DNA from: Escherichia phage VB-EcoM-WM
Sequence record: PQ014731.1
DNA length: 64,000 bases
Strand: one strand, 5' to 3'
Shown here: piece by piece, positions 48,610-50,458 of the stretch
Numbering within the stretch: the stretch's first letter is position 1
Layout: the number at the start of each line of letters is the position of its first letter
The notes under the pieces: model-generated
The model's input: only the letters and a program-made list of their open reading frames with translations
Databases searched by the model: none
Told to the model about the DNA's origin: nothing
Translations under genes and position numbers: made by a program

Positions 48610-49323
48610 TTAAATATATTCTGTTACATCCTTGAAGCTTGAAGGCTTCATAATCTTACCTTTACTGTCGAGGAATATGATAACTTTATTTCCGTTGTAG
48701 AATTCTTCTTTAGCAACAAAACCTTCATAGCGACCATCAAAGCGTCGCTCAAGATCTTTAATCTCCAACTCGATGATTTGTTCAGCAGGCATATCTGCAC
48801 TGGCACCGTGTGAATACCGCAGATGGTTGACCCGTGCAAACTTGCTGTCATTAGATTTTAGAACCTTCCGCATCATCCCGCACACATCACCGCGAAGCTG
48901 GAACAGCAAAGCTGTTGACAACTCTGCTAAGCGGTAAGCAGACGCTCTTTGCTTAGAGGTATTTTTCGCAGCGATCAGTGTATCATAAAATTCACCGATC
49001 TTAAACTTAAGACCTCGCGGATTATCAAACAAGTTTGACCACTTTTCGTGATTATCATTAACAAGATACGCTGCATAACTTGTGACAACGTGAAGATCGC
49101 AGGCCTCTTTTAGGAGATGATCCCCACCATCACCTTTCTCCAACTCTTCCAAAACTTCATTTAACTCTTCCTCAATGAAACTAAGTTGGAGTTCGAATGG
49201 TGTGTATGATTTTTTCACTTTAGCTGCTACACGGTTCCAATTTTCCACCCAGTTGGCAGACCAAAGGTAGTTTTCAGGTTGAGACAGTTTTTCCAGGTTG
49301 TCGATCAGTTTAGTATTCAGCAT
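48610..49323 (-). CDS. putative MazG-like nucleotide pyrophosphohydrolase domain protein
   Basis: FIEEELNEVLEELEKGD...EACDLH acidic motif typical of MazG/HisE fold; weak. Confidence 0.4.
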   Translation of the reverse strand: MLNTKLIDNLEKLSQPENYLWSANWVENWNRVAAKVKKSYTPFELQLSFIEEELNEVLEELEKGDGGDHLLKEACDLHVVTSYAAYLVNDNHEKWSNLFDNPRGLKFKIGEFYDTLIAAKNTSKQRASAYRLAELSTALLFQLRGDVCGMMRKVLKSNDSKFARVNHLRYSHGASADMPAEQIIELEIKDLERRFDGRYEGFVAKEEFYNGNKVIIFLDSKGKIMKPSSFKDVTEYI

Positions 49324-49337
49324 TAAAAGGCCTCCGC

Positions 49338-50099
49338 TTACAGTTCCATAAAGTTTTCTACGATGTCAATGAATGTTTTATCAGAGAAAGCGTCAACCGC
49401 CCCGTTAAACCAAACTGGGATGCCGCGATCCTCATACTGGTAAATGTCACTACGTGAAAGACCATTCTCCCCTAAATGCTGTGAGTCGTATTTGTTAACG
49501 ATTAGTAGTTTGGTCCCCTTATTACATGCAGGAAACAGCTCCCAGTTAAAATTGATAACTGTGTTGGAGCACCCTACAAGAATAACCATATCATTGCTAG
49601 TCAGAGAAGTCAACAAGTCATACATGTCTGTATACTTTGGGGCTACTTCTCCGAAGAATACTACATTAGGCTTAACCCAAGTATACTTGCTTGTATCTAC
49701 CTCAGAGTATCCAATATCTTTAATGACGTCATTCCCTTCATCATCCTCATAAACTATTTCTGGCAAATACCCGTGGACATGTAAAATATCTTCATGTTTT
49801 ACACCAGCACGCTCCAGCAAATCATCTACATTGGTGGTCAGGTTGATCACACGACCAGACCAGCGGGAATACCACTCAGCGATCCGGAGATGTGCAAGGT
49901 TAGGATCAACACTGCCCAGAGCTACACGACGTGCATTATAAAAGTCATGCACCTTATAGTAGTTCTTGGCAAAGGTGTGGATGTTACACACCTCATCGAT
50001 GCTGAAATTCTCCCACATTGCAGTGCCACCAGATCGGAAAGTTGGGATACCAGATTCAGCGCTCAAACCAGCACCGGAGATAATGATCAGTCGTCGCAT
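49338..50099 (-). CDS. Sir2-family (sirtuin-like) NAD-binding protein
   Basis: ISGAGLSAESGIPTFR matches sirtuin GAGIS..SGIP.FR; HG and VVFFGE; no CxxC zinc ribbon seen. Confidence 0.75.
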   Translation of the reverse strand: MRRLIIISGAGLSAESGIPTFRSGGTAMWENFSIDEVCNIHTFAKNYYKVHDFYNARRVALGSVDPNLAHLRIAEWYSRWSGRVINLTTNVDDLLERAGVKHEDILHVHGYLPEIVYEDDEGNDVIKDIGYSEVDTSKYTWVKPNVVFFGEVAPKYTDMYDLLTSLTSNDMVILVGCSNTVINFNWELFPACNKGTKLLIVNKYDSQHLGENGLSRSDIYQYEDRGIPVWFNGAVDAFSDKTFIDIVENFMEL

Positions 50100-50107
50100 A
50101 AGTGTCC

Positions 50108-50458
50108 TCAGTAGATGTTTTGTTTAATCTCTATTCCAAACTTTTTAAACGAGTCAGCAGCAAGCATGAATTTACGAGCCGCTGATGGGTTAGAAGTATG
50201 CACGAAAATCTTCACGTTGTCAACTACAGGAGGCTTACCAAATACAAATTTTTCCTCCAGCATAGACAGGCAATCGTACCCTTCAAATACCTCTCCAAGA
50301 TCGTTGTCCATGTGCCACTCAGAAACGCGCCTGTAGAGCTTTCCCTTATCGTTAATAAAATCCATAAACTCAGAGGAATTCTTTAGCCAAAGAGCATCTG
50401 GGAGCCCATAATTTGACGGATCTCTCAAGTCATCCAGCCACACAATCAACTTCTTCAT
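50108..50458 (-). CDS. hypothetical protein (116 aa)
   Basis: ORF track; coupled to sirtuin gene. Confidence 0.45.
   Translation of the reverse strand: MKKLIVWLDDLRDPSNYGLPDALWLKNSSEFMDFINDKGKLYRRVSEWHMDNDLGEVFEGYDCLSMLEEKFVFGKPPVVDNVKIFVHTSNPSAARKFMLAADSFKKFGIEIKQNIY

Follow-up and report, generated by a model that had tools for sequence, protein, structure and literature searches.

A zinc-less sirtuin in an RNA ligase operon of Escherichia phage VB-EcoM-WM: a possible NAD+-dependent partner in RNA repair

Introduction

Why does a lytic phage keep a sirtuin among enzymes that act on the ends of RNA? The question is raised by a Sir2 gene (49338-50099, minus strand) of Escherichia phage VB-EcoM-WM, located in a stretch of 64,000 nucleotides from sequence record PQ014731.1; this whole stretch was analysed and is called the window below. 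The product of the gene is a zinc-less class III (CobB/SIRT5-like) sirtuin, as judged from its match to PF02146 and from an AlphaFold2 (AF2) model, and the gene shares an operon with those of an RNA ligase, a cyclic-phosphate-processing receiver-like (cREC) protein and a MazG-like pyrophosphohydrolase. The answer favoured here, tentatively and with a confidence that falls somewhat short of even, is that Sir2 would perform the step dependent on nicotinamide adenine dinucleotide (NAD+) in a phage RNA-repair module, as predicted earlier (PMC9503650).

The locus belongs to a well-populated group. The window region is 94-98% identical at the DNA level to more than 100 rV5-like Vequintavirus genomes, in which the genes are annotated, and in the closest GenBank relative, phage HMD-6, all of the genes of the operon region are named alike, including a [quoted passage not shown]. 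Iyer, Burroughs, Anantharaman and Aravind (2022, Viruses 14:1977, PMC9503650, section 3.7.3) described the arrangement as their neighbourhood type 2, with Escherichia phage V5 and Proteus phage Mydo as prototypes. Their gene set consists of the sirtuin, a T4-like tRNA ligase, cREC, a nucleotide kinase, a MazG pyrophosphatase and, in some instances, a phosphoesterase of calcineurin-like type; the sirtuin was predicted to be KptA/Tpt1-like and to remove the 2'-phosphate of RNA at the expense of NAD+. The gene set of the window is identical, so that it is another member of this type, with no substantive difference. The cREC domain itself was defined by Iyer et al. in 2021 (PMC7824862), who proposed that cREC and Nudix proteins degrade ADP-ribose derivatives. 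As for the sirtuins, Skliros et al. (2016, PMC5107563) described the Sir2/CobB homologues of Vibrio phages and KVP40 as being without the zinc site, and proposed that they are ordinary protein deacetylases. Publications and annotations therefore already cover the gene family, its zinc loss, the neighbourhood and the two main hypotheses, and the cluster in the window adds nothing new to them. No experimental work, biochemical or genetic, on phage sirtuins or cREC was found in the literature.

The sirtuin and its missing zinc ligands

What kind of sirtuin is encoded here? The protein of 253 residues, whose N-terminus is MRRLIIISGAGLSAESGIPTFR, is matched by the Pfam family SIR2 (PF02146) over profile positions 1-178 of 180 (E = 9.3e-27, 94.6 bits against a cutoff of 24), and by PHROG 2162, "Sir2" (E = 1.8e-108). 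These scores are far above the chance level. The NAD-binding GAGxS...GIPxFR motif takes the form GAGLSAESGIPTFR (residues 9-22), and it is followed by TTNVDD, with N90 and D92, by LHVHG, with the catalytic H109, and by PNVVFFGE (residues 144-151). Cysteines are found only at positions 38, 187 and 202, and alignment to E. coli CobB places none of them between H109 and K143, the region that holds the zinc ligands. An earlier first-pass annotation of the window had placed at this position a Sir2-like gene with the sirtuin signature, the HG and the VVFFGE but no CxxC cysteines, a description that proved accurate on every point.

The active site is well kept. In a set of 42 phage homologues with 53-94% identity, S16, F21, R22, Y54, R57, N90, D92, H109 and the FFGE loop are invariant, with the exception of G150; this residue and G9-G11 are at least 90% conserved, not fully invariant. 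The residues of the acyl-lysine tunnel are also retained in the phage clade: F21, C38 (at the position of CobB A76), V91, V146 and F148. We take the acyl-pocket positions A76, I131 and V187 of CobB to be C38, V91 and V146 in the phage sirtuin, and Y54 and R57, which sit in a FYNARR motif identical to that of CobB, to be the class III pair that binds anionic acyl groups (Y92/R95 in CobB, Y102/R105 in SIRT5). Because the NAD-binding and catalytic residues are conserved across the phage clade, the sirtuin is, to judge from its sequence, very likely an active enzyme that consumes NAD+ or transfers ADP-ribose. A role in NAD+ use or ADP-ribosylation had been suggested in the first-pass annotation, and it is supported both by these residues and by the NAD-salvage neighbours found in related phages, as discussed below.

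And what about the zinc? The four-cysteine ribbon of the small domain is missing from the window protein and from 42 of the 42 members of the phage clade. Beyond this clade, an exhaustive HMMER search returned 5603 sirtuin relatives, of which the best 146 representatives were analysed, a protein being counted as zinc-less when the ribbon region (110-143) holds at most one cysteine. One third of them (48 of the 146) are zinc-less, including 15 of the 16 at the top of the ranking, and Y54 and R57 are both present in 41 of these 48; N90 and H109 occur in every one of the 146, and D92 in at least 90%. The zinc-containing relatives have an IGY ribbon motif in common, and most of them have C38 and YxxR. 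One has a cellular-looking gene context, and the longer ones (P0189, P0280, P0276 and others), which carry a second sirtuin domain or an extension, are uninformative for the phage clade.

The AF2 model (predicted local distance difference test score, pLDDT, 89.3) has a confident beta-hairpin at residues 110-128, where the ribbon sits. Its best match among solved structures is E. coli CobB, with a template modelling (TM) score of 0.75-0.85, then Sir2-Af1 and SIRT5, and all of the listed neighbours are sirtuins; the identity over the CobB structural alignment is only 26-27%. Sequence comparison leads to the same structures, namely E. coli CobB (1s5p, E = 4.6e-21), SIRT5 and Sir2-Af1. The NCBIfam matches are all to CobB-type models and all below the cutoffs (NF001753, 121 against 243 bits; NF040867 prot_deacyl_CobB, 102 against 320). 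Among the PADLOC defence models, no family was matched at E ≤ 0.01 by Sir2, cREC, the MazG-like protein or the RNA ligase, and the sirtuin has no detected homology to the Tpt1/KptA family (PF01885), SIR2 being its sole Pfam match.

On these sequence comparisons, the phage clade is best placed as a zinc-less offshoot of the CobB-like (class III) family, not with the defence-type SIR2 proteins; the model suggests that this lineage lost the four zinc-binding cysteines and retained the ribbon as a beta-hairpin. It shares with CobB and SIRT5 the fold, the GAGxS...GIPxFR and TxNxD motifs, the catalytic histidine of the HG, the FGE loop and the Y/R pair. Unlike them, it is without the four zinc cysteines, has a distinct C-terminal region (205-253) and is encoded by a phage, in an RNA ligase operon.

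The operon and its partners

In which company is the sirtuin produced? On the minus strand, the gene order is RNA ligase, cREC, Sir2 and MazG-like protein. The stop of the ligase (50455) and the start of cREC (50458) overlap as ATGA. The TGA of cREC (50110-50108) lies 8 nt before the ATG of Sir2, with a GAGGA Shine-Dalgarno sequence that overlaps this stop, and the 14-nt spacer between the Sir2 stop and the ATG of the MazG-like gene contains GGAGG. An intrinsic terminator (48603-48585, minus strand), made of an 8-bp stem with 6 G-C pairs and then a T-run, begins 6 nt past the MazG-like stop. This tight spacing, together with a single terminator after the fourth gene, defines a four-gene operon, Rnl-cREC-Sir2-MazG-like, in place of the three-gene cluster reported in the first-pass annotation, which did not include the RNA ligase. 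The translational coupling proposed there between Sir2 and the 116-residue gene before it is plausible, given the Shine-Dalgarno sequence over the stop and the distance of 8 nt, but the two genes do not overlap; the true ATGA overlap is the one between the ligase and cREC.

The first gene (50455-51390, minus strand) encodes a T4 Rnl1-type ATP-dependent RNA ligase of 311 residues (PF09511 RNA_lig_T4_1, E = 8.4e-15; PHROG 562, E = 2.5e-66). With a profile of the ligase family, the T4 Rnl1 structures 2c5u, 5tt6 and 9do4 are found at E of about 4e-22. A Trl1-like ligase, which would imply a 2'-phosphate at the junction, was considered and set aside, since T4 Rnl1 is the sole strong match of this profile and no Trl1 structure was reached with it at E ≤ 1.

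The second gene (50108-50458, minus strand), left as an unknown of 116 amino acids in the first-pass annotation, is identifiable as a cREC protein from its match to PF20274 cREC_REC (E = 4.5e-14, 53.3 bits against a cutoff of 27). Its residues D9, D10, R12, D51 and H87 are invariant in seven divergent phage cRECs, and they include a receiver-like acidic pocket (D9/D10/D51) with H87.

The last gene (48610-49323, minus strand; 237 residues) encodes an all-alpha nucleoside triphosphate (NTP) pyrophosphohydrolase of the MazG/dimeric-dUTPase superfamily. It had been noticed before as a MazG-like candidate, and at the level of the superfamily this assignment holds: the EExxE...ExxD metal-binding motifs, on a four-helix core, are invariant, PHROG 671 is matched at E = 6e-22, and PF01503 is a precomputed match in three homologues. 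The Pfam family PRA-PH stays below threshold (14.2 bits against 21.3, E = 0.058), and a Foldseek search of the AF2 model (pLDDT 76) against the PDB gave nothing significant (E > 0.3). In structure, dimeric dUTPases come closest to the protein, ahead of classical MazG, a point that refines the published description of the neighbourhood; its substrate could be dUTP or dUDP instead of an ADP-ribose derivative. About 80 residues at its C-terminus form a conserved extension, with the motifs SNDSKF, GRYxGF and KGKIMKPSSF. Searches of PDB sequences with the single ligase, cREC and MazG-like proteins gave no matches.

Two further genes run divergently from the operon, on the plus strand. One (51491-51901) encodes a polynucleotide-kinase-like P-loop kinase of 136 residues (PF13671 AAA_33, E = 8.8e-11) with the P-loop GLPGSGKST, and its relatives are annotated as polynucleotide kinase (PNK). 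The other (51909-52463) encodes a calcineurin-like metallophosphoesterase (MPE) of 184 residues (PF00149 Metallophos, E = 2.5e-6), a candidate enzyme for healing RNA 3' ends, whose gene is kept within the same block in related myophages of about 145 kb. All six components of the published neighbourhood thus lie inside 48610-52463, four of them in one operon. The cREC domain and the RNA ligase operon that faces a PNK-like kinase and an MPE are the main contextual clue to the function of the sirtuin, and this clue had not been seen in the first-pass annotation.

Neighbourhoods in other phages

Does the same company recur elsewhere? A sirtuin homologue was found in about 1005 phage records, which include Vequintavirinae, T5-like Demerecviridae, myophages of about 145-150 kb, schizoT4-like Vibrio phages and jumbo phages. 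The Sir2 proteins of 65 loci, the window included, were clustered into 23 lineages, and their neighbours were typed with Pfam. The rV5-like phages and the Mydovirus-like myophages of about 145 kb keep the set MPE-Rnl-cREC-kinase-Sir2-DNA ligase...MazG-like with the gene order shuffled, and the proteins of the block in the 145-kb phages are only 27-63% identical to those of the window. In the Mydovirus-like phages, the kinase stands between cREC and Sir2, and the start of the DNA ligase gene overlaps the Sir2 stop.

Other phages surround the sirtuin with different genes. In the T5-like group, the third gene downstream of Sir2 encodes a HAD_SAK_2 "RNA-repair" phosphatase in all 29 of the 29 loci, which cover three Sir2 clusters; NrdD is found upstream of Sir2, and DUF7415 proteins downstream. 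Serratia jumbo phage BF has a richer set: NAMPT, NMNAT-Nudix, an Acb1-like 2H phosphoesterase, Sir2, a Nudix-cREC fusion and a PhoH-family gene. The 2H protein of this locus (L004, 6281-6727) is annotated as "RNA ligase", and its best Pfam match is the anti-CBASS family Acb1 (E = 3.6e-15, against 1.4e-4 for 2_5_RNA_ligase2); the BF locus may mix counter-defence and repair functions. At another locus (L063), NAMPT is directly upstream of Sir2.

Seven further zinc-less representatives were examined in metagenomes. On a marine contig (L072), Sir2 is followed by an NMNAT/NadR-like gene and then by HAD_SAK_2; on another contig, the order is cREC, MPE, two unassigned genes and Sir2; and on a phage contig (L077, 6001-7100), the gene of the zinc-less Sir2 (P0148) runs into the start of one for a PTH2 peptidyl-tRNA hydrolase, and an AlkB-like dioxygenase and a DUF4326 protein are encoded nearby. 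The remaining ones comprise one T5-like arrangement and three uninformative contexts. In a further metagenomic look-up, the opposite strand carried ATP-grasp and Apyc1-like genes. Overall, two themes recur with the zinc-less clade in about five separate settings: the processing of RNA ends or tRNA, and NAD salvage.

The partners have a life of their own as well. In three loci without Sir2, cREC has RtcB and a Band-7 gene as neighbours (phage Privateer) or lies within a tRNA array (phage Stubb and a Yersinia jumbo phage); for this reason, its primary partner appears to be RNA ligation or tRNA, not the sirtuin. A KptA gene in the place of Sir2 beside cREC, which would support an analogy with Tpt1, was looked for in these three loci, and none is annotated there.

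One locus without a sirtuin deserves a separate mention. In Pseudomonas phage JG004 (L071, 4968-9160), the homologous Rnl1-type ligase and AAA_33 kinase are directly followed by a Prs-like gene and an annotated nicotinate phosphoribosyltransferase (NAPRT) gene. The last two resemble the NARP1 pair for NAD+ reconstitution, which would make this a case of RNA-repair and NAD-restoring genes side by side.

A model for RNA repair

How could these enzymes work together? The operon, the kinase and the MPE probably form a module for mending broken RNA, probably tRNA. In the model considered here, a host ribonuclease would leave ends with a 2',3'-cyclic phosphate and a 5'-OH; the cyclic phosphate would be opened by cREC, by the MPE or by both, the kinase would phosphorylate the 5'-OH, and the ligase would then seal the break. 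At this point Sir2 would move ADP-ribose from NAD+ to a residual 2'-phosphate of the RNA, or to another terminal phosphate, and the 2''-OH, activated by H109, would attack the phosphorus; the by-product would finally be dismantled by cREC and the pyrophosphatase. We infer the substrate and each enzymatic step of this model.

Four observations place RNA repair first among the possible functions: the tightness of the operon, the recurrence of RNA-end enzymes in unrelated phage groups, the nature of the partners, which are phosphoesterases and pyrophosphatases and not macrodomains, and a chemistry that is nearly isomorphic in sirtuins and Tpt1. The partners would fit a phosphate-bearing ADP-ribose product better than O-acyl-ADP-ribose. 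As for the chemistry, sirtuins act through a nucleophilic attack on C1'' of NAD+, followed by an attack of the 2''-OH. The mechanism of Tpt1 likewise consists of an attack on C1'' of NAD+ and then one by the 2''-OH (summarised in PMC11417386).

Can the analogy be taken further? In its boldest form, the zinc-less sirtuin would be the first one to act on RNA, a non-homologous analogue of Tpt1/KptA that, where tRNA breaks have been mended, uses NAD+ to remove or ADP-ribosylate a 2'- or terminal phosphate; if cREC served as the cyclic phosphodiesterase and the MazG-like protein cleared ADP-ribose cyclic phosphate, the module would be the viral counterpart of the fungal Trl1-Tpt1 pathway. So specific a scheme is rather unlikely, and it is built on analogy: counterparts can be named here for the cyclic phosphodiesterase, the 5' kinase, the ATP-dependent ligase, the NAD+-dependent step and the clean-up of ADP-ribose cyclic phosphate, and the proposed functional analogues both use NAD+ as the ADP-ribose donor. 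The differences are that Tpt1 has an ADP-ribosyltransferase fold and the phage protein that of a Rossmann sirtuin, and that the ligase is of the T4 Rnl1 and not of the Trl1 type. T4 itself offers another comparison. Its Pnkp-Rnl1 system resembles the window in joining an Rnl1-family ligase, a 5' kinase and a 3'-end phosphoesterase in a lytic coliphage with its own tRNAs; in contrast, the kinase of the window has no fused HAD phosphatase, with a separate MPE and cREC instead, and the sirtuin and the MazG-like protein are absent from T4.

Several points weigh against RNA repair as the task of the sirtuin. We know of no sirtuin that acts on nucleic acid, and in its sequence and its model the protein resembles an ordinary deacylase, with CobB, Sir2-Af1 and SIRT5 nearest to it and the acyl-lysine tunnel conserved. 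Healing and sealing of the T4 type leaves no 2'-phosphate; the ligase is T4-Rnl1-like and not detectably Trl1-like, and therefore a 2'-phosphate junction is no obvious product of the module. The MPE could clear the 3' end without NAD+, and E. coli already has KptA. The genomic contexts add their own objections. In about half of the 22 lineages from phage contigs (nine or ten), among them the Phapecoctavirus-like phages and Vibrio phage nt-1, no partner can be recognised up to three genes away from Sir2, and many of the positive contexts share ancestry, so that they are not independent. Phage EF1-1, which is Phapecoctavirus-like, has the intact block cREC-MPE-Rnl-kinase...DNA ligase...MazG-like, with Sir2 about 33 kb away from it. 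The T5-like phages have Sir2 and no detectable homologue of the window ligase or cREC; when the partner proteins of the window were compared by tblastn with the T5-like, Phapecoctavirus, nt-1 and BF loci, only Sir2 was found. The ligase family occurs in 760 records (177 from Pseudomonas phages, 14 from Salmonella phages), and Sir2 is present in 289 records of Salmonella phages. An obligate pairing of Sir2 with the ligase and cREC is ruled out by these record counts and host distributions and by the separation in EF1-1, and both the distance and the loose association can be added to the published picture of the type 2 neighbourhood.

Alternative explanations

If not RNA repair, what else? The leading alternative is that the phage protein is an ordinary CobB-like lysine deacylase, a deacetylase or desuccinylase of host or phage proteins that uses NAD+ and releases nicotinamide and O-acyl-ADP-ribose. 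It might serve to switch acetylated enzymes of stationary-phase cells back on, or to see that the catalytic lysines of the adjacent ligases or the REC-like neighbour stay free of modification; the gene would then stand in the operon because it is expressed along with early genes of nucleic-acid metabolism, and cREC and the MazG-like protein would at most clear an ADP-ribose by-product. The relationships described above speak in its favour, from the sequence matches to CobB and SIRT5 and the fit of the model on CobB to the uniformly CobB-type NCBIfam models, the FYNARR motif and an acyl pocket filled by the conserved C38, V91 and V146. The T5-like phages, which have neither the ligase nor cREC, keep the same invariant residues, which suggests a function independent of the repair module; the link with NAMPT and NMNAT would suit any sirtuin that consumes NAD+, and for the zinc-less Vibrio phage homologue the same conclusion was reached before (PMC5107563). 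Yet the NCBIfam scores are far under the equivalog cutoffs, and the whole clade has lost the zinc ligands. In the first-pass annotation, orthology to ordinary CobB deacetylases had been set beforehand against its own proposal; homology and catalytic residues are indeed CobB-like, but these low scores and the absent ligands set the phage protein apart. In canonical sirtuins, half of the substrate cleft is formed by the small domain, which these ligands stabilise. Besides, the host has a CobB of its own, a macrodomain or esterase partner is not seen, and the recurring neighbours are RNA-end and tRNA enzymes (Rnl, PNK-like kinase, cREC, HAD_SAK_2, 2H and PTH2), a pattern that a deacylase does not predict. 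All in all, protein deacylation is possible as the main function, and on balance doubtful.

A role on small molecules is the idea put forward in the first-pass annotation, and we regard it as improbable. Here Sir2 would be an NADase, would catalyse nicotinamide exchange, or would belong with cREC and the pyrophosphatase to a pathway that builds or breaks down signals or toxins derived from ADP-ribose, for counter-defence or manipulation of the host. It draws support from the NAD-salvage genes and the Acb1-like 2H protein beside Sir2 in phage BF, from NAMPT and the NMNAT/NadR-like gene at the two other loci, from the ligase-kinase block of JG004 that abuts NARP1-type genes, and from the proposal that cREC and Nudix proteins degrade ADP-ribose derivatives (PMC7824862). 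The analogy with zinc-less defence NADases that had inspired it did not survive: no defence-type SIR2 NADase model of PADLOC is matched, the nearest relatives are the deacylases, and the full deacylase-type catalytic site with its acyl and anion pocket, which NADase sirtuins do not need, is kept. Nor does anything in the window point to the suggested countering of NAD depletion, which an NAD+-consuming phage enzyme would be expected to worsen; a Pfam scan of 100 other open reading frames (ORFs) of the window gave 35 families, and no NAD-salvage family is among the best 25 of them. Moreover, cREC accompanies RNA ligases and tRNA arrays in phages without Sir2. A last idea, and a very improbable one, brings the sirtuin back to tRNA without any sealing of breaks: it might deacylate RNA-linked amines, such as the N-acetyl-aminoacyl-tRNAs made by GNAT-family toxins. 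The overlap of the Sir2 and PTH2 genes on one metagenomic contig, the tRNA theme of the neighbourhoods and an intact amide-directed sirtuin chemistry are consistent with it. The overlap is a single context, with no precedent and nothing specific in the window, and in steric terms an aminoacyl ester's alpha-amine does not resemble the side chain of lysine.

Two known types of system were also considered and ruled out. The defence SIR2 NADases (ThsA, DSR1/2, SIR2-HerA and SIR2-pAgo) have the SIR2 superfamily and the use of NAD+ in common with the window protein; unlike them, it matches the canonical PF02146 and no PADLOC model, has CobB and SIRT5 as its nearest relatives, is encoded by a lytic phage and has no fused or adjacent sensor or partner (SLOG, HerA, pAgo or TIR). 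A pair of the SirTM/macrodomain type, similar to a toxin-antitoxin system, can be discarded for the clade. The sole sirtuin found with a macro-like protein is that of Streptomyces phage Faust (gp156/157), also a PF02146 sirtuin of a phage, whose gene has an RNA ligase, a kinase and a tRNA array in its vicinity. It differs in keeping the CxxC...CxxC ribbon, in being followed by the macro-like protein (read from the sequence, with no Pfam match) and in belonging to a different clade, with 27% identity. In the window, the Macro family has no match in the four operon proteins and is not among the best 25 of the 35 families from the 100 other ORFs scanned.

Other features of the window

The next transcription unit after the operon contains a gene for an ATP-dependent DNA ligase of 427 residues (46698-47981, minus strand; PF01068 and PF14743; PHROG 114, E = 1e-82), preceded by two small ORFs with no assigned function (47981-48250 and 48237-48545). 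The presence of both DNA and RNA ligase genes near the sirtuin, reported in the first-pass annotation, is thereby confirmed.

On the plus strand, a cluster of phage tRNA genes (55399-56122) was found with ARAGORN and Rfam. It encodes tRNAs for Arg, Tyr, Ser, Thr and Met, with one odd tRNA-like gene between Ser and Thr, and its products are possible clients of the repair module. The odd gene (55868-55966, plus strand) is unusually long, with 97-99 nt, is reported by ARAGORN as "tRNA-???" with the four-base anticodon atcc, and scores only 37.5 bits with the Rfam tRNA model; it could be an intron-containing or a degenerate tRNA.

Interrupted genes are seen at two places. A group I intron (58393-58617, plus strand; Rfam RF00028, 92.7 bits, E = 1.7e-22) lies between the ORFs 57660-58409 and 58736-59473, both of which are annotated as terminase large subunit in the closest relative, so that terL appears to be split by the intron. 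The nrdD gene (28844-31744, minus strand) is in two pieces, 28844-29851 and 30575-31744, both of which match Pfam NRDD, with an HNH homing-endonuclease ORF (29972-30523) between them.

A RaiA/HPF homologue, related to ribosome hibernation and translation inhibition, is encoded at 17467-17784 (minus strand; PF02482 Ribosomal_S30AE, E = 1.8e-12). In HMD-6, the adjacent ORF is annotated as another such factor ("sigma 54 modulation factor"), and the matching ORF of the window (17060-17329) has no Pfam match. Between 9655 and 11217, about 1.5 kb are without any ORF of at least 70 residues on either strand; the closest relative has no coding sequence there, and the only feature is an 18-nt tandem repeat (10847-10881). 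Finally, about 18-25 GenBank records of the series MG0656xx, named "Campylobacter phage" with C. jejuni as host, are 92-98% identical in these genes to rV5-like and phi92-like phages of E. coli; they are probably mislabelled or derived from contaminated isolates.

Concluding remarks

The sirtuin gene of phage VB-EcoM-WM is real and correctly located, and in its context it is more interesting than the first-pass annotation had recognised. What would the answers mean? If the RNA-repair function is true, sirtuins would gain a nucleic acid as a substrate, and phages would have reinvented, with an unrelated fold, the NAD+ step of eukaryotic tRNA ligation; this would bear on how phages survive the defences that cleave tRNA, and on the reason for the NAD-salvage genes of many large phages. 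If instead the protein is a deacylase, the remodelling of protein acylation during infection would be a trait of about 1000 sequenced phages, of the T5-like, rV5-like, KVP40-like and jumbo types. Either way, this is a widespread gene family with an intact active site.

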